Under the pieces are notes generated by a model. That model saw only the letters and a list, made by a program, of their open reading frames with translations, was not told where the DNA came from and searched no databases. A stretch of 49,834 bases of DNA from Escherichia phage UP30: sequence record OX638287, one strand, 5' to 3'. A program made the position numbers and the translations under genes. Shown here piece after piece: positions 3,143 through 49,434 of this stretch; positions within the stretch are counted from its first letter, which is position 1, and each line of letters begins with the position of its first letter.

Positions 3143-3183
3143 GCACGAATTGTTAAAAGTGGATTTGGCCTGACTGGTATAAT
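3141..3183 (+). promoter_or_regulatory. early promoter module
   Basis: aagcacgaattgttaaaag; TGgTATAAT 3175-3183. Confidence 0.55.
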
Positions 3184-3720: not shown

Positions 3721-3869
3721 TGGTTACCTGGGTTTTGATTATCCTGATGAGCAATGGACCGGATCACGTATATATGAACAGCCAGCATTCATGCAATGAG
3801 GCTCGGGCAGTCATTGCAGATAACAAGCCGTTCGGATACGAAGTAAAAACTATGTGCGTTAAACGATAG
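3720..3869 (+). CDS. putative small protein (49 aa, MVTWVLIILMSNGPDH...)
   Basis: TAATG overlap with upstream stop, GAGGTG RBS, stop TAG embedded in box; hydrophobic N-terminus. Confidence 0.4.
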   Translation: MVTWVLIILMSNGPDHVYMNSQHSCNEARAVIADNKPFGYEVKTMCVKR

Positions 3870-3914
3870 CACGAATTGCTAAACCTTCCGCAAGGCCATT
3901 TGATATAGTGGCCT
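3867..3914 (+). promoter_or_regulatory. early promoter module
   Basis: tagcacgaattgctaaac; aaggccatTTGATATAGTggcctt. Confidence 0.6.
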
Positions 3915-3949
3915 TATTGAAGCAGGGCAACCAATCAGAGGAATCAGCT

Positions 3950-4156
3950 ATGGCTACACGACTCACTCAGTGGCAGATTTACGACAAGGCATCACGCCTA
4001 CGTGAATCACTTCGCGGACTGACACCGAACGACCGCATGGAGATTATCGGGCACGCATTGCACGAACTCACGCCGCCGGACGTAACCTATCATTCATGCG
4101 GCAATAAATTCTGGAACGTAACATTCGAGGTGAAGAAACATGAGCAAGCGTCATAA
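3950..4156 (+). CDS. hypothetical protein (68 aa)
   Basis: Track ORF starts at 3908 inside the promoter hairpin; ATG 3950 follows CCAATCAGAGGAAT leader. Confidence 0.5.
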   Translation: MATRLTQWQIYDKASRLRESLRGLTPNDRMEIIGHALHELTPPDVTYHSCGNKFWNVTFEVKKHEQAS

Positions 4157-4427
4157 GTTAAAAATCGCTCCGGTACATTTCATCGGGGTAATGAACGGAA
4201 CCAAAACGGCTGAGTTCCGAGTCAATGACCGCAACTTCCAGCCCGGCGATATCCTGGAGCTATGCGAGTTCGAGCGCGATGAGTTTACCGGGTGGGAGGT
4301 TCACGCCAGGGTATCCGATGTTACCGATGTGACGCCATACATCAATCGCGGGTATGACGAGCAAGAATGCGACTTCACGCAATACGTGATGTTATCAATC
4401 AAGCCTTACAGGAAGATTAGGCCATGA
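4140..4427 (+). CDS. ASCH-domain-like protein (95 aa)
   Basis: GTKTAEFR matches the GxKxxExR ASCH signature. Confidence 0.45.
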   Translation: MSKRHKLKIAPVHFIGVMNGTKTAEFRVNDRNFQPGDILELCEFERDEFTGWEVHARVSDVTDVTPYINRGYDEQECDFTQYVMLSIKPYRKIRP

Positions 4428-5237: not shown

Positions 5238-5456
5238 ATGGCTACTATCATGACAGCAGAAGATGCAGCACGCGACGCAGTGGAAGGAATGCGCCCAAAT
5301 AGCTCCAGAATCGCCCACTACTACAAATCTGAGGTGTCGGCAGTGCAATTGACCCACGAAATTTTAAGGCTCCCACAGGTCGATTCAGCGCGCGTAGTGA
5401 CGTGCTTAAAAAATTATTTTTGCATTGCTATTAAAACGAATAGCACGAATTGCTAA
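5238..5456 (+). CDS. hypothetical protein (72 aa)
   Basis: ORF with AAGGGTG RBS; stop TAA embedded in box. Confidence 0.35.
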   Translation: MATIMTAEDAARDAVEGMRPNSSRIAHYYKSEVSAVQLTHEILRLPQVDSARVVTCLKNYFCIAIKTNSTNC

Positions 5457-5488
5457 AACCTATCAAGGGGAATGCGCTATGATTCCCC
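5441..5488 (+). promoter_or_regulatory. early promoter module
   Basis: tagcacgaattgctaaaac; ggggaatgcgcTATGATtcccc. Confidence 0.55.
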
Positions 5489-5513: not shown

Positions 5514-5960
5514 ATGAAACACTTAATCTGTATTGAAGCACCTAACGATGAATACACTCTTCACGGCATTGGTATGTTCAAAGGTCACTATATGACCGCA
5601 AGCATTTACGACGCGCATCGAGGTGACGGCGATCTAATGATTAAGTCAAAAGAGGTTAATCCGTACATCATGCAGAATCTTGGTAATAACGAATATATGG
5701 CCTACGGATGCAATGCGGTTTACAAGCACATCAAGATCCGCAAGCGTGTAGTGCGTGCATTCAAGAAAATTGCAATGAAGCACTGGAAGATGAGCAAGAA
5801 GGACGCCGGACGCTGGGCGCGCAATGTTGCTGACTCATACTTCTACCGTAACGGTGAGTCCTGCTACTTCCTTATCGATGAACTTATGGAAAACTGCGGA
5901 GGCGACTTCAGCCAGATTAGCTTTGACGATTGGGCTAACTATGAGATTAGTTGCTGGTAA
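5514..5960 (+). CDS. hypothetical protein (148 aa)
   Basis: Track ORF starts at 5472 inside the hairpin; ATG 5514 follows GAGGAAACA RBS. Confidence 0.5.
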   Translation: MKHLICIEAPNDEYTLHGIGMFKGHYMTASIYDAHRGDGDLMIKSKEVNPYIMQNLGNNEYMAYGCNAVYKHIKIRKRVVRAFKKIAMKHWKMSKKDAGRWARNVADSYFYRNGESCYFLIDELMENCGGDFSQISFDDWANYEISCW

Positions 5961-6009
5961 TGGCACGAATTGCTAAAACTTGCTCAAGGGTATTTGATAG
6001 AATGCCCTT
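5961..6009 (+). promoter_or_regulatory. early promoter module
   Basis: tggcacgaattgctaaaac; aagggtatTTGATAGAATgccctt. Confidence 0.55.
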
Positions 6010-6043
6010 CGTTGAGTTAAGCAACCAATCAGAGGAATAAATC

Positions 6044-6685: not shown

Positions 6686-7258
6686 ATGAAAACAGCTATC
6701 ATTTTAAACGGCGCGCCGGGCGCTGGTAAGGACACTATCGGCGCAATCCTGGCTGACATTTACGATCACGTAGCTTTGCGCAGCTTCAAAGAGCCGATGT
6801 TTGAGATTGCTCGGGCAATACTTGGTGAAACTAACTACGAGTATTTCATGTTCTTGTATGAGGACCGTCGATACAAAGAAGAGCCAGCATCTATCCTGAA
6901 CGGTAAAAGCCCACGCCAGTTTATGATCTGGATTAGCGAAGAGGTAATCAAGCCACAGTTCGGCAATCGCTTCTTCGGTATGCGAGCGGAAAGTAAGGTG
7001 AAAGAGTCGTACTCCCTTTCGGTATTTACTGACGGTGGATTCAAAGATGAGATCTTGCAAATGATTGAAGGCGATATCCAGGTAAAGCTATGTCGAATCC
7101 ATCGCAACGGTTGCAACTTCGATAATGACAGTCGCGATTATATCTACCTGGATGATATGATCGGGGTCAACGGTTATCAGGAATGTGATTTCTTCTCTGT
7201 TGAGGGTCATCCTGAAATTACCGCTCAGCACATAGCCGCCACATTCATCAATAAATAG
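6686..7258 (+). CDS. P-loop kinase, dNMP-kinase-like (190 aa)
   Basis: N-terminal GAPGAGKDT Walker A of the GKDT type seen in phage dNMP kinases. Confidence 0.5.
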   Translation: MKTAIILNGAPGAGKDTIGAILADIYDHVALRSFKEPMFEIARAILGETNYEYFMFLYEDRRYKEEPASILNGKSPRQFMIWISEEVIKPQFGNRFFGMRAESKVKESYSLSVFTDGGFKDEILQMIEGDIQVKLCRIHRNGCNFDNDSRDYIYLDDMIGVNGYQECDFFSVEGHPEITAQHIAATFINK

Positions 7259-7303
7259 CACGAATTGCTAAAGCGTCGGTGGGGTGATTTGATATAGTTA
7301 CCT
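7256..7303 (+). promoter_or_regulatory. early promoter module
   Basis: tagcacgaattgctaaagc; TGaTATAGT 7290-7298. Confidence 0.55.
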
Positions 7304-7330: not shown

Positions 7331-7540
7331 ATGATGGTATCAACTGATAAGCTTTTCACTTGCACTAAAACTTCTGAAGTATTCGAACTTATCCATACTG
7401 ATGATGGCGATTTCATGTATGACGGTTGCGACGCTTTCATTGAAGTGAAAGAAAGTGACTATGACGAAGGCGTTTATTATAATCCGGCAGTGAGCACTCA
7501 GTTTTTTACACCGATCGAAGAAGAAGGAGAAGGGGCATGA
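7331..7540 (+). CDS. hypothetical acidic protein (69 aa)
   Basis: ORF after promoter module. Confidence 0.5.
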   Translation: MMVSTDKLFTCTKTSEVFELIHTDDGDFMYDGCDAFIEVKESDYDEGVYYNPAVSTQFFTPIEEEGEGA

Positions 7541-7884
7541 TTACGATTAACCTGTCAGAGAAGCAAGCTCGTGAAATACTTGATGCTATTGGCGATCAAT
7601 TACACGTAAAGGGTGCTGCGGCTGAATTGCTAAACCAGATCGACAAACAACTAACTCCAATATCGACGAATCAAGCTGAGTTTGCAGTCTGGAAAAGTGA
7701 GCGAATCTTGCCAAATATTATCAAGGCGTGGAAGCGCAAGCATAAAAAGCAGGTTAACGTAGAGGAATTATTTACCGATGAATTAAGTCCTGCTAAGGTT
7801 GCTCAGTACCAGTTGCGATACATGGAGTCGGTTTGTAATCAGGTTTTAGGTTTGGATATAAAAATGGTAAAAGGTGATAAATAA
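7537..7884 (+). CDS. hypothetical protein (115 aa)
   Basis: ORF, ATGA overlap with upstream gene. Confidence 0.55.
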   Translation: MITINLSEKQAREILDAIGDQLHVKGAAAELLNQIDKQLTPISTNQAEFAVWKSERILPNIIKAWKRKHKKQVNVEELFTDELSPAKVAQYQLRYMESVCNQVLGLDIKMVKGDK

Positions 7885-15784: not shown

Positions 15785-15812
15785 TTGACGCTTTAACAAA
15801 AAGTGCTATTAT
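15785..15812 (+). promoter_or_regulatory. strong sigma70-type promoter of capsid gene (TTGACG-16-TGcTATTAT) with inverted box in spacer
   Basis: -35 15785-15790, -10 15807-15812; box ttaacaaaaagtgctatta 15793-15811. Confidence 0.55.
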
Positions 15813-19525: not shown

Positions 19526-19560
19526 TAAAATCATCGTATCAACTTTATTCACTTCGTTTT

Positions 19561-19578
19561 TAACAAAAAGTGCTATTA
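19561..19578 (-). promoter_or_regulatory. dyad box, inverted relative to downstream tail chaperone gene
   Basis: taacaaaaagtgctatta; followed by CCAATCAGGAG leader. Confidence 0.45.
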
Positions 19579-19597
19579 ACCAATCAGGAGAAATATC

Positions 19598-32074: not shown

Positions 32075-32098
32075 GTACACCAATCAGGAGAAGTTAAG

Positions 32099-35020: not shown

Positions 35021-35042
35021 AGTATAAACTCCTTAAGTAAAT

Positions 35043-35092
35043 AGCATGAATTGCTAAACACTGATTTTATCATTGCGCTAATGGTCTTGCAA
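35043..35092 (-). promoter_or_regulatory. tail fibre promoter (TTGCAA-17-TGaTAAAAT) with dyad box at the start site
   Basis: -35 35087-35092, -10 35064-35069 on minus; box 35043-35061. Confidence 0.5.
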
Positions 35093-35098
35093 CGGGCA

Positions 35099-35122
35099 AT
35101 AAAAAACCGCCCGAAGGCGGTT
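35099..35122 (-). terminator. intrinsic terminator after primase (minus strand)
   Basis: ccgcc-cgaa-ggcgg with A6 on plus strand = U-run on minus. Confidence 0.6.
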
Positions 35123-36056
35123 AGAGTAGGTCACTTGCTGAGAATAATTTGGCTTGCATTCCTGAACGGTATCCTCCAGGGTTAGGGATGATTATTTTTA
35201 ACTGCCTGTCGTCTGCCATATACAAAGTTTCTTTGTCAGATGGTTCGCACGCCACCCTTACCTCCCGATCCCCTTTGTATCTGTACGCAACCATTTCTAG
35301 GTTTTCAGGAGTAAAGCAGGCCCATACCTCTTGCTTTGTATGAAATGCAATATGTTGAGCATCAATCCAGTTTAGACACAAGTAGATCGCCTTCTCAGTT
35401 TTACCAGTCACGGCAACCGAGCAACTTGTGTATTTCTTCGCGTAAAATGATTCCCTTCCCTCTTCATCAATAATCAAAATATTGCAAAACTCGTCATCAA
35501 GCCCATCGTCATGCACAAGTTGACACGGGATAGTGTGAAATACTGACTCACCGCCATCCTCGCGACGTTTTACGCCTACGTCGAATGATTCAGTGGGTAG
35601 TGACTCAAACATACTTAGAGGCGTGTTTACGCGCTTCTCTGTGCGCTCCATAACTTTCATCACTGCATCATGGTCTGCCATCATAACATTTACGCCAGCT
35701 ACCGGAGTGCGGCGTGCTTTTTTGTTTGCCTTGACAATGTACTCCTGCGGAACCTTACCGAGAAATCTCCCCAGGATGTTTATGCATTCACTGTACGGCA
35801 TACCAGTTAATTTCATCAACCAGCCGATCCCGGAGTCGTTGCCGCATGAGTTGCAGATCGCGCCGCCGTCGCCCGGAGTATTCAAGTTATCAGTCCAACG
35901 AAAACGGTCCTTGCCGCCGCAGTTAGGGCAAGGTTGGTGCTTCTTGTTGAAAACCTCGTTAGGCAATCCGCAAACAGACTGGAATGCATCACGCCATAAC
36001 CCCTTCATATACGGCAATACGTCCTCTTTCTGAAACATCATAAATTCTTCGTTCAC
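35121..36056 (-). CDS. DNA primase (zinc-binding, putative)
   Basis: CPNCGGKDRFRW...CNSC zinc-finger motif; GTG 36056 or ATG 36041, start uncertain. Confidence 0.55.
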   Translation of the reverse strand: MNEEFMMFQKEDVLPYMKGLWRDAFQSVCGLPNEVFNKKHQPCPNCGGKDRFRWTDNLNTPGDGGAICNSCGNDSGIGWLMKLTGMPYSECINILGRFLGKVPQEYIVKANKKARRTPVAGVNVMMADHDAVMKVMERTEKRVNTPLSMFESLPTESFDVGVKRREDGGESVFHTIPCQLVHDDGLDDEFCNILIIDEEGRESFYAKKYTSCSVAVTGKTEKAIYLCLNWIDAQHIAFHTKQEVWACFTPENLEMVAYRYKGDREVRVACEPSDKETLYMADDRQLKIIIPNPGGYRSGMQAKLFSASDLL

Positions 36057-36077
36057 TTCCAGATCTCCAAATAAAAA

Positions 36078-36132
36078 CGCGTAGAAGGATGTTACCCCGC
36101 TACGCGTCGTTTGTTTTAACTAAAAATGCTAT
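36078..36132 (-). promoter_or_regulatory. dyad box plus downstream hairpin/U-run upstream of primase
   Basis: Box 36114-36132 (minus sense tagcatttttagttaaaac); stem acgcgtag/ctacgcgt 36078-36110. Confidence 0.45.
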
Positions 36133-36568
36133 TGGTCGTTCCGATATCTTCCTTCTTCACCACTCGCATAAACTTCTTGTTCTTGCATCGCTTCTCAAGG
36201 CACTTGCCGTTACCGTCAAACTTGAGGTCGAATCGCAACCATGCCGCGCGGTATCCTTTACACCCCTGGCGACGGTAAGCGCGATGTGCAGCTTCAGCAC
36301 CTTGCCACGAAATCATATTGCGCTCTTTCCAGCCTTGCACGGTCTGATTACTAACTTTCAGAGCCTTTGCGCAGGCCGCCGGGCCACCATAATATTCGAT
36401 AAGAGCATCAAGTCGCGCTCGCAGTCCGGCGCGTGTTTCTTCTTTATGGATATAGAATCCGCAGCGTTGGCGAGGCTTTTTATCTTTACCGCGTCGGGTT
36501 CCATTGTTACCATTGATGTGACGTTTATCGATTTCACCAGTTGACTCGGCAATTCGTTGCATATTCAT
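36116..36568 (-). CDS. DNA-binding protein with Cro-like HTH and possible N-terminal HNH-like motif
   Basis: ACAKALKVSNQTVQGW helix-turn-helix; RHINGNNG resembles an HNH core; AGGAG RBS. Confidence 0.45.
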   Translation of the reverse strand: MNMQRIAESTGEIDKRHINGNNGTRRGKDKKPRQRCGFYIHKEETRAGLRARLDALIEYYGGPAACAKALKVSNQTVQGWKERNMISWQGAEAAHRAYRRQGCKGYRAAWLRFDLKFDGNGKCLEKRCKNKKFMRVVKKEDIGTTNSIFS

Positions 36569-36581
36569 CTTGATTCTCCTG

Positions 36582-36648
36582 TAGCACTTTTTGCTAAAAA
36601 CGTTTACTGTATGCCGTGTATTATAGCGTAAACGTTACAACGATTCAA
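36582..36648. promoter_or_regulatory. bidirectional promoter region sharing one palindromic -10 (TATTATAG)
   Basis: Box 36582-36601; plus -10 tattat 36619-36624; minus TATAAT 36620-36625 with -35 TTGAAT 36643-36648. Confidence 0.5.
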
Positions 36649-36661
36649 AGGATTAATAGCC

Positions 36662-38680
36662 GTGACAATGAACATCAAAAAGCAGATTGCATTACTTGGC
36701 GAGGACTACATAAAACGCACTCAGGAGCGATTCACTGTTGGTGAGGTCGTTCCGTATCCGTATCAGGTTGTTGCTTATGCTGAGATAGCGAAGCGCCTGT
36801 CAAATTATGATCATCCATTCTTCGTTAAAGCGTCAGTATCTGCGGGTAAGACAATCATTTTTGCTATGGTTGCAAAACAGTGTCAGAAAATGGGGTTAAA
36901 AATGCTTGTGCTGGCACGCCAGGGTGAGATTGTCGATCAGGATAGCGAAGAGATCGACAACTTCGGTGTGACTAACTCTATCTTCTCAGCGTCACTTGGA
37001 ATAAAATCTTGCTACTTCCCGATCGTGGTTGGCTCTGAGGGTACTGTTGCAAACGGCCTCAATAATGAGTTGGCTGATTTTGTCCCGCATGTAATAGGGA
37101 TCGACGAATGTCACCAGGTGGATTGGGAAGACCTCGCGCAAGCAATCGAAGGAAAGGAAACGATTGAGCAGATGAGGGGGGAGAAAGGGAAAGTTATCAT
37201 GGAAGGGGAGATTCCTCTGATTGGTAATGATGGTAAGCCTCTTCTCGGAACTAAGCGAAGCCAGTACACGATCGTTATCATGGAGATGATGCGTCGCTGT
37301 AAAGAGGTTCACGGGCATGACCTAAGAATATTTGGTATGACGGGATCTGAATTTCGCGGCGTTGTTCCTATTCTTGTTGAGAACCCAAAGGCGTTAGGAT
37401 TCTGGCGTGAGCGCGTTACTGATATTGACACAAACTACCTCATTGAGTTTGGTTCTGTCGTTCCGACGATATTCGGTTCAACTGACGGGGTTCATTACGA
37501 TCTGGATAAGTTCAAGGCGTCGAGCGAGGACGGCGTGCAGGACTTTACAGAGAAAGATATGAAGGCGATGGAAGATGAAATCCTTCATGACAAATCTCTG
37601 ACTCAGCGAATCATGCAAATGGTCGCCAAAAAGGCTGAAGAACGCAACGCTGTTTTGATTACATGTGCCGGGGTTCGTCACTGTAAAGAGGCGGCGGCGG
37701 CACTTCCTCCGGGAAGCACCTATGCAATCATCACTGGAGATACAGACACCAAAACTCGCAAGAAGATTCTGGACGATGTGAGGGCCGGGAAGATTAAATA
37801 CACCTTTCAGGTAATGGCTCTCACGACTGGCGTTAACGTTCCAAATTGGGATTTCAGCGTCATACTTCGTAAGATAGGATCACTCACGCTGTTGATTCAA
37901 CTTTTGGGTAGGGGTATGCGACTGCTTAAATCATGGCAGGTAGCTGAAGGAATGGTCAAGCAAGATCATCTTGTATGGGATTTCGCTGGCACCATGGATG
38001 AGTTAGGCCAACTTTATTTCGATCCGATACTTGAGCAGGCTCAATTCCAGAAGCGTTTTGAAAACGGCAAAGACCCGAAAACGTGTCCGAAGTGTGGTTG
38101 CGTAAATAGCTTCTACGCTCGCCGATGCGTTAACGTTATCGACGGTGAGCGTTGTGATCATTTCTGGACTTCTCAGATTTGCGAGGACCAGGTGGATGAG
38201 CGTACCGGGAAAATCATTGTTAAAGGATGTGGTGCAGAGAATGACGTTGTTGCTCGCGTCTGCCGTTGCTGCGATGTTTCGCTTGTCGATCCTAACCTGA
38301 AGTTGTCAGGTAAAGCGTACACCAAGAATGACTGGTACGAGGTCAAGAATTTTGAGGTAACTCTAACCAAAAACCAAAAGGGCGTTATATACAAATACAC
38401 ACTGATTAACGATGATGGCGATGAGTTCAAGGCGTATGAAAAATTCTTCCCTGAGTCCGACTCTAAGATTTGCGGTACGCTATGGAAAACGAAGGGTGTA
38501 TTGCCTCATGTGTCAGATCCTAAAATGCGTCGCTACTTTATCGGAATGAAGAACGCCATCAAGATCGTGCAGTACTCGCATCATATCGCTCATCCGGTAC
38601 GTGTCACACACCGACGCAACCAGAAGAAGGAAGATATTATTTCACGTAAAGATTTCGGTATGGAGGATATCCCACAATGA
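36662..38680 (+). CDS. SF2 helicase with C-terminal zinc ribbon
   Basis: Walker A SAGKT, DECH box, CPKCGC...C-rich C-terminus; start may be ATG 36668. Confidence 0.75.
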   Translation: MTMNIKKQIALLGEDYIKRTQERFTVGEVVPYPYQVVAYAEIAKRLSNYDHPFFVKASVSAGKTIIFAMVAKQCQKMGLKMLVLARQGEIVDQDSEEIDNFGVTNSIFSASLGIKSCYFPIVVGSEGTVANGLNNELADFVPHVIGIDECHQVDWEDLAQAIEGKETIEQMRGEKGKVIMEGEIPLIGNDGKPLLGTKRSQYTIVIMEMMRRCKEVHGHDLRIFGMTGSEFRGVVPILVENPKALGFWRERVTDIDTNYLIEFGSVVPTIFGSTDGVHYDLDKFKASSEDGVQDFTEKDMKAMEDEILHDKSLTQRIMQMVAKKAEERNAVLITCAGVRHCKEAAAALPPGSTYAIITGDTDTKTRKKILDDVRAGKIKYTFQVMALTTGVNVPNWDFSVILRKIGSLTLLIQLLGRGMRLLKSWQVAEGMVKQDHLVWDFAGTMDELGQLYFDPILEQAQFQKRFENGKDPKTCPKCGCVNSFYARRCVNVIDGERCDHFWTSQICEDQVDERTGKIIVKGCGAENDVVARVCRCCDVSLVDPNLKLSGKAYTKNDWYEVKNFEVTLTKNQKGVIYKYTLINDDGDEFKAYEKFFPESDSKICGTLWKTKGVLPHVSDPKMRRYFIGMKNAIKIVQYSHHIAHPVRVTHRRNQKKEDIISRKDFGMEDIPQ

Positions 38681-39093
38681 TTACAGACAAAGGTGATTAT
38701 TTAGAGTTTTACGAACGAGATCCCAGCGACACACGAAAGGAGGACGCGCACCAGGTAGATTGCGTGTCCTGGCTGAAATACAATTTCCCACATCTTCTAT
38801 TTTGGCACACTGTAAATGAAGGTGAAAAAACAATCACCTCGGCGCTCAGGGATGAGCAGGCTGGGTTACTTAAAGGAGTGTCAGACTTCGTTATCCTGAT
38901 TGGTGTAAACTCACGCTACCCGTTCGCAGCTATCGAACTCAAGCGGGTTAATAAGTCCGGCAAGGGAAAGGCGTCACCAGTCAGCGATAAGCAAAAGGAA
39001 TTTCTCCGCAATGTTCGTCAACGAGGTGGATTTGCTGCGGTTGCATATGGATTGGAGCAATTCAAGATCGCAATTTACGAAATGATGAAATAG
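38677..39093 (+). CDS. VRR-NUC-type nuclease
   Basis: PD-(D/E)xK-like core (VSDFVIL...AAIELK); ATGA overlap with helicase. Confidence 0.6.
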   Translation: MITDKGDYLEFYERDPSDTRKEDAHQVDCVSWLKYNFPHLLFWHTVNEGEKTITSALRDEQAGLLKGVSDFVILIGVNSRYPFAAIELKRVNKSGKGKASPVSDKQKEFLRNVRQRGGFAAVAYGLEQFKIAIYEMMK

Positions 39094-39135
39094 CACTTTT
39101 TGTTAAAACTGCCGGAATGGAATCTGGCATTATTA
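39091..39135 (+). promoter_or_regulatory. promoter module upstream of dam
   Basis: tagcactttttgttaaaac; TGgCATTAT. Confidence 0.5.
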
Positions 39136-39874: not shown

Positions 39875-40122
39875 TGAACGAAAAAATGATTCCGGTTAAG
39901 TTAACTGAGCAAGGCTTATGGCTTCTTTATCGCGCTACGTGCTGCGAAATCATGGAACAAAACGGATTGACGAAAGATGTTATTGGTTGCGACTTATGGG
40001 AGTTTACCAGTTCTCTTGATATGTCATTCGACGAGATAAAGAATGAACACATTGATTATTGGCCTTCGCTCATACAAAGAGACGTAGAAGAATTTAAATC
40101 TGATACGATCGCACAGCACTAA
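39871..40122 (+). CDS. hypothetical protein (83 aa)
   Basis: In-frame ATG of ORF 39829-40122, ATGA overlap with dam stop. Confidence 0.45.
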   Translation: MMNEKMIPVKLTEQGLWLLYRATCCEIMEQNGLTKDVIGCDLWEFTSSLDMSFDEIKNEHIDYWPSLIQRDVEEFKSDTIAQH

Positions 40123-40157
40123 TTGCTAAAACTACCCGGCGAAAGTCGGGTATAGTT
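40115..40157 (+). promoter_or_regulatory. promoter module
   Basis: agcactaattgctaaaac; cccggcgaaagtcggg then TATAGT. Confidence 0.5.
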
Positions 40158-40398: not shown

Positions 40399-40648
40399 GC
40401 GCGAAGTGTGGGAGCATGCAAAGGAATGCGGGATCTCAGGCGATATAGCACTAATCGCTAAATACTTCGATATAAAGGATGTTAGCATTATTTCAAACGG
40501 CAAGATTTCATTTATGGAAGATATGCCGAGAAAAATGCATAGAGTACCAGCTACTCCATCGCTTGAGTTTTACCGTGAAGAAGGAAAGAGAATTGAACGA
40601 GAACGAAAAGCAGCAAAAAACATCAAGTCTTCCCGGCTTAAATATTAA
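40376..40648 (+). CDS. hypothetical protein (90 aa), overlaps next ORF in another frame
   Basis: Track ORF; possible frameshift partner of 40479-40880. Confidence 0.3.
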   Translation: MLIKKQGKREVWEHAKECGISGDIALIAKYFDIKDVSIISNGKISFMEDMPRKMHRVPATPSLEFYREEGKRIERERKAAKNIKSSRLKY

Positions 40649-40958: not shown

Positions 40959-42110
40959 ATGTCACAAGCTAAAATCACTACCGAGCAACTAATCGAAGAG
41001 CGCATGAACGGCCTAACGCTTCGCGAGATCGCGGAAAAGTACGGTATGCATATCCGCACGGTTGAAGCGCGTCACGCCAAACTTGCAAAAGAAGGCCACT
41101 TTCACGGTAACGAGCATGTTGCTAAAAACGTTCCAGAAGGCTTCATGGTTAAAGGTACATCAACGATGATTCGAGGTGATGGGACCGAAGTGGTCCGCTG
41201 GGTTAAGACAGATCAGGATCGTGAGAAGATTGCCGCAATGATGGAAGCGGCTCGTATTGCATTCTGCGAAGACCTGCCGCGAGCAAAGCCAACCGAGCTA
41301 CTCACCTCGCAAGGACTTACAACCGCGATCGGTAAGCTGGCGCTCTATCCGGTATTCGACCTTCACATCGGCGCGCTTGCTCACAAGCATGAGTGCGGAG
41401 AGAACTACTCTACCGACGTAGCTGAAAAAGTGCTGGGCGACTTCTTCAATTATGCGATCGATATCGCGCCAAATGCAGAGAAAGCCGTTCTGTTAATCGG
41501 CGGTGACTTCCTTCACTCTGACGGCCTTGACGCTGTAACCCCGGCAAGCGGTCACGTTCTGGATCAGGATTCACGATACGCTAAGTTGGTGCATGTAGCG
41601 ATTCGATCGGTGCGACGAGCTATCGACAAAATGCTGACGAAACACAAAGAAGTCGAAGTCCAGGTCATTGAAGGAAACCACGACCAATCAGGAATGATTT
41701 GGCTGCGCGCTGCAATGGCTGCATACTATGAAGACGAGCCGCGAGTATTCGTTGACGTGAGTCCTATGATTCTGCATAAGACTCGCTGGGGCAATACCTT
41801 GCTGGGATACACTCACGGTCACACGATGAAAAAGGCCGACATTCGACTTGCAGCAATGGCGGCAGACTTCCGCGCAGACTTCGGTGAAAGCAAATACGTG
41901 TACACGCACAGCGGACACTGGCATCATCAGACAATCACTGAACACTCGTTAGGAATTGATGAGGTTCACGGGCAGTTAGGAGCGAAGGATGCATACGCCG
42001 CGCGAGGCGGGTGGCGCTCATATCGCCAAGCGGCGGTAATCGTTTACGACAAGCAATTTGGTGAGATAGGTCGATTCATCTATCGTCCAGAAATGACAGG
42101 ATCGCACTAA
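40959..42110 (+). CDS. calcineurin-like metallophosphoesterase with N-terminal HTH
   Basis: DLH, GDFLHSDG, EGNHD, GHT, GHWHH motifs; LTLREIAEKYGMHIRTVEARH helix-turn-helix. Confidence 0.65.
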   Translation: MSQAKITTEQLIEERMNGLTLREIAEKYGMHIRTVEARHAKLAKEGHFHGNEHVAKNVPEGFMVKGTSTMIRGDGTEVVRWVKTDQDREKIAAMMEAARIAFCEDLPRAKPTELLTSQGLTTAIGKLALYPVFDLHIGALAHKHECGENYSTDVAEKVLGDFFNYAIDIAPNAEKAVLLIGGDFLHSDGLDAVTPASGHVLDQDSRYAKLVHVAIRSVRRAIDKMLTKHKEVEVQVIEGNHDQSGMIWLRAAMAAYYEDEPRVFVDVSPMILHKTRWGNTLLGYTHGHTMKKADIRLAAMAADFRADFGESKYVYTHSGHWHHQTITEHSLGIDEVHGQLGAKDAYAARGGWRSYRQAAVIVYDKQFGEIGRFIYRPEMTGSH

Positions 42111-42150
42111 TTGCTAAAAACGCCCGAAGGGATTCGGGCATAGTAACCAC
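42104..42150 (+). promoter_or_regulatory. promoter module
   Basis: gcactaattgctaaaaac; gcccgaagggattcgggc then CATAGT. Confidence 0.5.
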
Positions 42151-45696: not shown

Positions 45697-45750
45697 CGGT
45701 GTAAATGATACACCGCCAATGGTACACGCGTTTTGCAAAAAGTGCTATTA
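45697..45750 (-). promoter_or_regulatory. promoter module (minus strand)
   Basis: Minus-sense tagcactttttgcaaaac; hairpin with TATCAT; AAGGAG. Confidence 0.5.
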
Positions 45751-46687: not shown

Positions 46688-46715
46688 TTCTAATTCCTTT
46701 GTTTCGTTTGGTGTG

Positions 46716-46767
46716 GGAGTAATATATATCACTCCCGATTGTATGTCTTTAGCAATTCGTGCTATCA
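46716..46767 (-). promoter_or_regulatory. promoter module (minus strand)
   Basis: Minus-sense tagcacgaattgcta; gggagTGATATATAttactccc. Confidence 0.5.
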
Positions 46768-47831: not shown

Positions 47832-47880
47832 GGGATGACTATACCAGCCATCCCGGATGCGCGTTTAGCAATTCGTGCTA
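47832..47880 (-). promoter_or_regulatory. promoter module (minus strand)
   Basis: Minus-sense tagcacgaattgctaaac; gggatggcTGGTATAGTcatccc. Confidence 0.55.
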
Positions 47881-48216
47881 TTAAGCAATATCGAACTCAG
47901 CGGCATATGCTTCCTTGAAGCCAGCTTCACGCATGGTGCGCTTGCTGATTTTGCGCTGGAATTTGTACTGGCTGTTAGGCATAACCCACCAGAAGCAGGC
48001 AGTTTCACGAACGATTTCATATTTACCGTAACGGGTGAAGGTGTCGCGTTCCATATCCGGCTGATTTACACAGGTCAGGAATTTAGCTGCCTTGTCTTCA
48101 GTTTTGATTTCTTCCCACACGAAGGAATCCATACCGTTAACCTTGCAAGCTACCATGATGTACTCAACGCCGTTTTCGATTTTGATGATTTCGTTACCGC
48201 GATTTTCGTATTTCAT
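47881..48216 (-). CDS. hypothetical protein (111 aa)
   Basis: ORF after promoter module; stop overlaps next box. Confidence 0.55.
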   Translation of the reverse strand: MKYENRGNEIIKIENGVEYIMVACKVNGMDSFVWEEIKTEDKAAKFLTCVNQPDMERDTFTRYGKYEIVRETACFWWVMPNSQYKFQRKISKRTMREAGFKEAYAAEFDIA

Positions 48217-48249: not shown

Positions 48250-48298
48250 AGGTAATTATGCCAAATCACACCGATCGAGTTTTAACAAAAAGTGCTAT
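48250..48298 (-). promoter_or_regulatory. promoter module (minus strand)
   Basis: Minus-sense tagcactttttgttaaaac; ggtgtgatttgGCATAATtacctc. Confidence 0.5.
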
Positions 48299-49148: not shown

Positions 49149-49164
49149 TGCTGCTTCCTCTTCT

Positions 49165-49227
49165 GATTGGTTGATGTGATGAATCATACCCTGCCAACCT
49201 GGTCCAGTCGTTAGCAAAAAATGCTAT
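49165..49227 (-). promoter_or_regulatory. promoter module (minus strand)
   Basis: Minus-sense atagcattttttgctaac; TATGAT; CCAATCAGAAGAGG leader. Confidence 0.45.
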
Positions 49228-49413: not shown

Positions 49414-49434
49414 TTTTAGCAAAAAGTGCTACCG
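49414..49434 (-). promoter_or_regulatory. dyad box without adjacent ORF
   Basis: Minus-sense tagcactttttgctaaaa; next 190 nt leftward have no ORF >21 aa. Confidence 0.4.

Follow-up and report, generated by a model that had tools for sequence, protein, structure and literature searches.

A probable Cro-like regulator encoded beside the primase gene of Escherichia phage UP30 and a recurrent marbox-like repeat in T1-like phage genomes

Organization of the locus

The stretch of DNA analyzed here, referred to below as the window, comprises 49,834 nucleotides of Escherichia phage UP30 (sequence record OX638287), and the surroundings of the open reading frame (ORF) in focus are those of a T1-like phage genome: over 4.2 kb, the sequence shares 92% identity with that of Shigella phage Shfl1 (Tunavirus, Drexlerviridae), and the corresponding value for dozens of relatives is about 90%. 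The gene order is tail fibre, primase and helix-turn-helix (HTH) ORF on the minus strand, followed by the divergent helicase, VRR-NUC and Dam genes on the plus strand. The genes at the center of this analysis are the following:

36116-36568, minus strand: HTH ORF, 150 aa with an ATG start, encoding a small basic protein (pI 10.2)
36575-36580, minus strand: AGGAGA, Shine-Dalgarno sequence of the HTH ORF
35121-36056, minus strand: primase gene, directly downstream of the HTH gene and co-oriented with it in all relatives
36662-38680, plus strand: helicase gene, divergent from the HTH gene

The HTH ORF is a real gene. The original prediction had placed an HTH protein at this position next to the primase, and its coordinates, strand, ATG start, AGGAGA and match to PHROG 2856 all bear this out. 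An ORF of 151 aa on the opposite strand (36089-36544, plus) is most likely spurious, because codon-level conservation supports the minus-strand frame. PADLOC returned no match for the finding.

The protein is a homologue of T1 ST23 and TLS gp57, and it matches PHROG 2856 ("transcriptional regulator") over residues 4-145 at an E value of 2e-76 in a profile search, so that both a full-length profile match and conserved synteny place it in this family. A tblastn search found the ST23-type family in 824 phage records, essentially all of them Drexlerviridae, and a further 80 viral contigs carry a homologue. Among 1.84 billion representative proteins there were 76 matches at E values up to 1e-3, with the strong ones all belonging to the ST23/gp57 family and the weak ones being Cro/YdaS-like proteins of 80-100 aa. 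The UP30 copy is 99% identical to database entries; the family is already annotated as "transcriptional regulator", without characterization, and taken alone the ORF is an ordinary member of it. The synteny, with the helicase divergent and the HTH gene followed by the primase, is fixed in five subfamilies and in a distant clade, which marks the HTH gene as a core gene. Searches of viral and metagenome contig collections yielded no distant homologues, and the distant clade was reached by exact look-up. In its members, the arm described below is preceded by a further conserved segment, ERLKPNGEPYKTKWYKP, at the N-terminus (Logan contigs L087, 10001-10477, and L088, 1403-1864), and these two contigs keep both the helicase/HTH/primase synteny and the marbox modules. 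Some lineages also possess a Lys/Glu-rich C-terminal tail of 50-60 residues, as seen in P0033 (208 aa), P0042 (202 aa), and TLS gp57 (202 aa).

Architecture and conservation of the protein

The protein is organized into three parts, which map to the window as follows:

36470-36544, minus strand: invariant basic N-terminal arm, residues 9-33, STGEIDKRxINGNNGTRRGKDKKxR, containing RHINGNNG and predicted to be disordered
36269-36442, minus strand: Cro/YdaS-type all-alpha HTH domain, residues 43-100
36317-36382, minus strand: HTH proper, residues 63-84
36149-36268, minus strand: family-specific C-terminal extension, residues 101-140, with the conserved motif G..G[YF][RT]A.[FW][CL]R[PF]DL.FD..G

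A Cro/YdaS-like helix had been proposed at ACAKALKVSNQTVQGW (residues 65-80), and profiles, structural models and fold comparisons all speak for an HTH regulator, the predicted structure having in fold searches the all-alpha fold of the lambda-repressor-like HTH proteins. The ORF itself scores below the curated cut-offs of the relevant Pfam families (P22_Cro, PF14549, 23.6 bits against 30.2; YdaS, PF15943, 19.5 bits against 30), and NCBIfam offers only a sub-threshold match to the "carph-isopro" HTH domain (34.8 versus 38); among 25 relatives, 18 have a Cro/YdaS Pfam match at E < 0.01, the best reaching 3.9e-7, and precomputed Pfam annotations are present on many relatives.

The most conserved part of the protein is the N-terminal arm, and the recognition helix is among the least conserved, with the mean frequency of the top residue being 0.89 in the arm, 0.82 in the C-terminal extension (residues 101-121), and 0.61 in the recognition helix. 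Twelve arm residues are invariant in the family alignment (G11, D14, R16, N19, G20, N21, N22, G23, R26, G27, D29, and R33), and the distant clade, the members of which are about 45% identical to one another, keeps the arm as D-K-R-K-x-N-G-N-N-G-T-[RK]-R-G-x-D. Synonymous codons are used freely at the invariant residues of the motif (Asn AAT and AAC about equally, all four codons for Gly, five for Arg), so that it is the protein, and not a DNA element overlapping its gene, that is under selection here. For the recognition helix, UP30 has SNQTVQGWKERN, Vibrio phage Vc1 has CCVRLTNAYRLRG, and members of the distant clade have either INGLRMVLWKQKG or FKRHRVARWVEKG. From this pattern of conservation, the constant function of the family would appear to rest on the arm and the extension and not on a fixed DNA-reading helix, and the focus of study should accordingly move from the recognition helix to these two elements. 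The extension is modelled at pLDDT values above 90 and the arm at about 50, the latter being weak evidence of disorder because the AF2 alignment was shallow (25 sequences). The arm was not found joined to other domains, the only other occurrences being two fragments, and in the representative library it accompanies only the ST23-type HTH domain.

The arm is also the part that had suggested a nuclease, since RHINGNNG (residues 16-23) resembles the His-Asn core of HNH enzymes and Cys and His residues follow it in UP30 (C36, H41, C66, H95, C103, C123, and C128). A small HNH-type homing endonuclease with an HTH targeting domain has only this local string and the scattered Cys and His residues of one sequence in its favor. 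The string itself is present as predicted; its catalytic residues are not conserved. His17 occurs in 11 of the 61 distinct versions of the protein and is replaced by Thr, Cys, or Lys in most relatives, with Thr in the majority, H41 is Leu in 83% of sequences, and no His is invariant in the family alignment. C128 is the sole invariant residue among the five Cys, there are no CxxC pairs, and N19, N21, and N22 are invariant without a second conserved His. The motif moreover falls in a segment predicted to be disordered. No HNH profile was matched at E values up to 10 by the ORF or up to 0.01 by 25 family members, none of which matched any other nuclease profile, and three fold searches found neither a nuclease fold nor a beta-beta-alpha-metal finger. 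The likeness of RHINGNNG to HNH, judged on the aligned sequences, is superficial, and with no conserved His, no metal-site set of Cys and His, no profile, and no fold we consider the endonuclease refuted at the level of sequence and structure comparison.

Control region of the HTH, primase, and helicase genes

The HTH and helicase genes are separated by a gap of 93 nt, which, together with the HTH-primase junction, holds the following elements:

36620-36648, minus strand: sigma70-type promoter of the HTH-primase operon, TTGAAT (36648-36643), 17 nt, TATAAT (36625-36620), 10/12 matches
36582-36598, plus strand: box (21-nt repeat, marbox), TAGCACTTTTTGCTAAA, 16-nt form TAGCACTTTTTGCTAA at 36582-36597, 20 nt upstream of the helicase -10 hexamer
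36619-36624, plus strand: TATTAT, -10 hexamer of a rightward helicase promoter without -35, predicted from its geometry
36599-36636: inverted repeat AACGTTTAC (36599-36607) / GTAAACGTT (36628-36636), flanking the shared -10 hexamers, its sequence not kept beyond close relatives
36069-36107, minus strand: intrinsic terminator between the HTH and primase genes, an 8-bp GC-rich stem followed by UUUUUAUUU (-18.8 kcal/mol, z -3.9)
36116-36131, minus strand: degenerate box TAGCATTTTTAGTTAA, the counterpart of TLS repeat DR10, at the 3' end of the ORF and followed after 21 nt by TAACAT

The promoter layout is conserved in 61 distinct upstream regions, and in TLS, for which only three sigma70 promoters have been reported, one of the three, P57, is its counterpart (PMC11447400). 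The box has a double position, lying upstream of the helicase -10 hexamer and at the same time at about +16 to +31 of the leftward HTH transcript, where it adjoins the Shine-Dalgarno sequence. Between promoter and ribosome-binding site it is kept in 61 of 61 distinct upstream regions, with the rest of the spacer diverging. The predicted -10 hexamer of the helicase promoter overlaps that of the HTH-primase promoter face to face. A terminator is annotated in T1 and TLS at a place equivalent to the one between the HTH and primase genes, and the degenerate box at the end of the ORF may be a weak module for the primase gene.

The control region yielded no operator that could be assigned to the HTH protein itself. 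The GTAAACGTT dyad, of which there are four exact copies in the window, was considered and rejected in this role, as its arms change in close relatives with the same recognition helix and other lineages have unrelated inverted repeats at that place; it is now treated as one instance of a general feature, a hairpin around the -10 hexamer, to which we return below.

The box as a marbox-like promoter element

The dyad box of the window is the 21-nt direct repeat aaATAGCACnnnTTGnTAAAA described in TLS and, according to its authors, present also in T1, Rtp, and Rogue1, the function of which was listed by the TLS authors as an open question, with stoperators, enhancer sites, and UP elements being suggested and no binder being named (PMC11447400). 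There are about 24 copies in the window versus 0.7 expected. The repeat matches the binding site of the host regulators MarA, SoxS, and Rob, given in the literature as the marbox pattern gcannwwntgnnaaa (PMC12052159) or as the soxbox/marbox consensus AYNGCACNNWNNRYYAAAYN (PMC2064960): the marbox GCANNWWNTGNNAAA has 21 exact copies in the window versus 0.97 expected, and AYNGCACNNWNNRYYAAA, the first 18 positions of the consensus, has 18 exact copies versus 0.07 expected. The box agrees with the asymmetric 20-mer consensus at 13 of the 14 specified positions, the Y at position 19 not being followed. When 87 boxes from seven genomes were compiled into a matrix, agreement with the consensus at positions left free by the search was seen at 1, 2, 7, 14, and 15, and positions 3 (A) and 11 (T) are conserved beyond what the marbox consensus requires. 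The box also has a partial dyad symmetry, TAGCA-N5-TGCTA, 5+5 with a half-site spacing of 10 bp, together with a conserved asymmetry, the left half TAGCAC being invariant and the right half reading TTG[C/T]TAA.

The geometry of the copies is equally regular, with the 16-nt box being followed by exactly 21 nt and then by a -10 hexamer, often TGnTATAGT, without a -35 element. In the window, a forward orientation combined with a distance of 20-21 nt to a -10 hexamer is seen in 17 of the 21 copies, which is class II geometry with respect to the predicted start sites. The 20-nt gap, counted from the 15-nt core, is found in 16/21 copies here, 13/14 in Klebsiella phage NJS1, 14/20 in T1, 8/15 in phiEB49, and 7/12 in Vibrio phage Vc1 (NC_054898.2), a member of the Drexlerviridae whose recorded host is Vibrio cholerae and whose 12 sites are exact marboxes. 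The forward sites with this spacing are:

786-803, 1525-1542, 2579-2596, 3143-3157, 3866-3883, and 5440-5457, plus strand: forward marbox sites, 20-nt spacing
5960-5977, 7255-7272, 39090-39107, 40113-40130, 40445-40462, and 42101-42118, plus strand: forward marbox sites, 20-nt spacing
45731-45745, 46748-46765, 47864-47881, and 48281-48298, minus strand: forward marbox sites, 20-nt spacing

These sites precede most of the small early genes, and their -10 hexamers lack a -35 and are often extended. The box does not supply the -35 itself, the distance of 22 nt between its TTGYTA and the -10 hexamer being too long for that; nor does it behave as an RNA hairpin, as boxes are found in either orientation with respect to transcription and the stem is disrupted, with no compensating change, in the common TAACA variant. 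Boxes in reversed orientation lie within sigma70-type promoters of late genes or a short way past them, at positions from which a bound factor would be expected to repress transcription:

15785-15812: reversed box filling the spacer of TTGACG-16-TATTAT, before the major capsid gene
19559-19576: reversed box before the tape-measure chaperone gene
35042-35092: reversed box over the start site of TTGCAA-17-TAAAAT, before the tail fibre gene
49415-49431: reversed box

Two further features accompany the boxes. GC-rich inverted repeats of variable sequence, with stems of 6-9 bp, lie before or around the -10 hexamers at the box promoters (811-834, 2606-2627, 3891-3914, 5465-5488, 36599-36636, 46712-46733, 47832-47855, and others), the mean perfect stem at these hexamers being 5.6 bp versus 4.0 bp in shuffled flanks. 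Several of them are annotated as terminators in the T1 and TLS records, and the layout looks like that of promoters embedded in terminators, in which new transcripts would start within or after the 3' arm; one such repeat lies between the divergent HTH and helicase genes, a place that no read-through RNA reaches. The second feature is a leader motif, ACCAATCAGAGGA, with 10 copies at no more than one mismatch versus 0.1 expected, including 1588-1600, 3930-3942, 6024-6036, 19579-19591, and 32079-32091 on the plus strand and 37213-37225 and 49159-49171 on the minus strand; several copies, located shortly before start codons, coincide in part with the ribosome-binding site.

Candidate readers of the box

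The original prediction had named the HTH protein as a candidate binder of the box, and this now appears doubtful. On the strength of the match to the asymmetric consensus with its orientation and spacing, the conserved asymmetry, and the invariance of the box, we think it rather likely that the host activators MarA, SoxS, and Rob, of which Rob is constitutively abundant, are the primary readers of this genome-wide site, a part that the HTH protein probably does not play. The opposite case would have the HTH protein act as a box-binding phage transcription factor, a dimer on TAGCA-N5-TGCTA centered near -41/-42, which would activate some 17 promoters without -35 in the manner of lambda cI at PRM and would repress its own and some late promoters. 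Several observations speak for such a factor: the HTH protein is the only recognizable DNA-binding protein in the genome, its host-type promoter is what would be expected of an immediate-early activator (P57 of TLS being one of three sigma70 promoters), the box stands in the leader of its own gene in all relatives, the 5+5 dyad has a half-site spacing of 10 bp, the position of the box suits a class II activator, and positions 3 and 11 show conservation beyond the marbox. Against this, an asymmetric match at 13 of 14 positions, strictly forward and with a spacing identical to that of micF, is very unlikely by chance, the asymmetry of the two halves is conserved in all copies, and the box has remained constant where the recognition helix has been exchanged for another, namely in the distant clade and the lineages of Vc1 and HCF1. 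In Vc1 and in two distant-clade contigs, the unchanged box is found alongside recognition helices that bear no relation to the T1 helix. A site that stays constant while its reader varies is unlike a cognate pair, whereas constancy is what would be expected of a site read by conserved host proteins, and we therefore consider a box-binding phage factor unlikely, some room being left for it by the sigma70 promoter, the box in the leader, and the partial dyad symmetry. Both could also act on the same sites, with the host proteins activating and the phage protein competing.

The search for other readers covered 20 further early ORFs, in which no other HTH or AraC-type protein was detected, and RefSeq names no other HTH protein. 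Two of these ORFs match Pfam families, namely 4140-4427 (plus strand), which is DUF3850/ASCH-like (9.6e-16), and 7537-7884 (plus strand), which is DUF7180 (2.5e-31); the other 18 have at most weak sub-threshold matches (E 0.007 or worse), and 13 of them have none. Among papers that can be read without a subscription, none was found that links marboxes, SoxS, or Rob with T1-like phages.

Proposed role of the HTH protein

The reading that we lean toward is that the HTH protein is a Cro-like early regulator or adaptor at the control region of the replication genes and not a nuclease, with the box probably being read by the host. As predicted from the arrangement of the locus, the protein would be made early, together with the primase, from an activator-independent sigma70 promoter, with the transcript being attenuated ahead of the primase gene and the promoter being coupled reciprocally to that of the helicase by the overlap of their -10 hexamers and the box that they share. 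The fold of the HTH domain suggests that it contacts DNA, and the variable recognition helix would make this contact lineage-specific or of low specificity, whereas the invariant arm and C-terminal extension may hold an invariant partner, for which we consider nucleic acid, for example a DNA groove or backbone, as well as RNA polymerase, a replication protein, and a host factor.

The same invariant elements, which suggest a conserved protein partner, could also be read as those of a replication-initiation accessory, that is, an origin-binding or primase- and helicase-recruiting protein that would form the DNA-binding module of a split P4-alpha-like primase-helicase. The gene is always directly upstream of the primase gene, co-transcribed with it and divergent from the helicase gene, and no origin binder has been identified in the T1-like phages, whose primase is of the Zn-ribbon type and whose helicase belongs to DUF3987. 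However, the TLS authors found no iterons or origin-like repeats (PMC11447400), none were seen near the HTH gene here, and the fold matches are transcription regulators, so that we regard this role as quite improbable.

Returning to the regulator or adaptor favored above, it may be asked how it would relate to the box promoters. In the most far-reaching version, T1-like phages would drive 12-22 early promoters through marboxes read by MarA, SoxS, and Rob (or by RamA in other enterics), and the ST23-type protein, made from a marbox-independent promoter, would modulate this circuit, its arm engaging the marbox-bound activator or RNA polymerase and expression being shifted from the marbox-driven early genes to late genes with reversed-box promoters. 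We offer this combined scheme tentatively and would not expect it to hold in full. The main value of the analysis is the identification of the 21-nt repeat of T1-like phages as a consensus class II marbox, which may answer a question left standing in the 2024 TLS genome paper. If it is true, a classic family of virulent coliphages would couple its early expression to the host regulators of antibiotic, oxidative, and bile stress, which would matter for phage therapy that is combined with antibiotics or applied in the gut.

Comparison with known systems

Among the small proteins of the same phage family are the HNH endonucleases of T1-like phages (T1 ST63, ST15, and ST8), but these are encoded by separate ORFs readily recognized by profile and annotation, and the HTH ORF lacks their profile, fold, and catalytic residues. 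The closest known counterparts of the protein are the all-alpha Cro proteins, namely Xfaso-1 Cro (3bd1), N15 Cro (2hin/6on0), and P22 Cro (1rzs), with the Pfam families P22_Cro and YdaS. At 150 aa the phage protein is about twice their size, and two parts of it, the invariant basic N-terminal arm, which is predicted to be disordered, and the conserved C-terminal extension of 40 residues, have no equivalent in the Cro proteins; unlike Cro, it comes from a virulent phage without a repressor partner, and its recognition helix is poorly conserved in the family. Lambda cI at OR2/PRM illustrates how an HTH protein bound near -42 could activate a promoter without -35 and shut off a divergent overlapping one; the layout of the HTH/helicase region would permit such action, but the sequence of the box argues for a host activator instead.

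As to the suggestions made for the repeat in TLS, the stoperators of mycobacteriophage L5 resemble the box in that a single short site recurs many times between genes in a defined orientation, but they are bound by the repressor of a temperate phage and lie within transcription units, whereas the box stands at a fixed distance upstream of -10 hexamers. UP elements are a poorer parallel, the conserved GCAC and TTG positions of the box not being UP-like. The closest counterpart is micF, an established class II promoter of the mar/sox/rob regulon, at which the RamA site is centered at about -41 and reads CACT-7X-AAA (PMC8811837). In our measurement, the micF marbox ACAGCACTGAATGTCAAAAC has exactly 20 nt from its 15-nt core to the -10 hexamer TAGAAT, followed by 7 nt to +1; the phage box shares with it the forward orientation, the 20-nt gap to the -10, and a center near -41. 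The phage boxes differ from the marboxes of the host in being near-consensus and present at 12-22 per 50-kb genome, the host sites being degenerate, and the phage modules are further set apart from host class II promoters by the conservation of positions 3 and 11 and by the GC-rich hairpins around their -10 hexamers.
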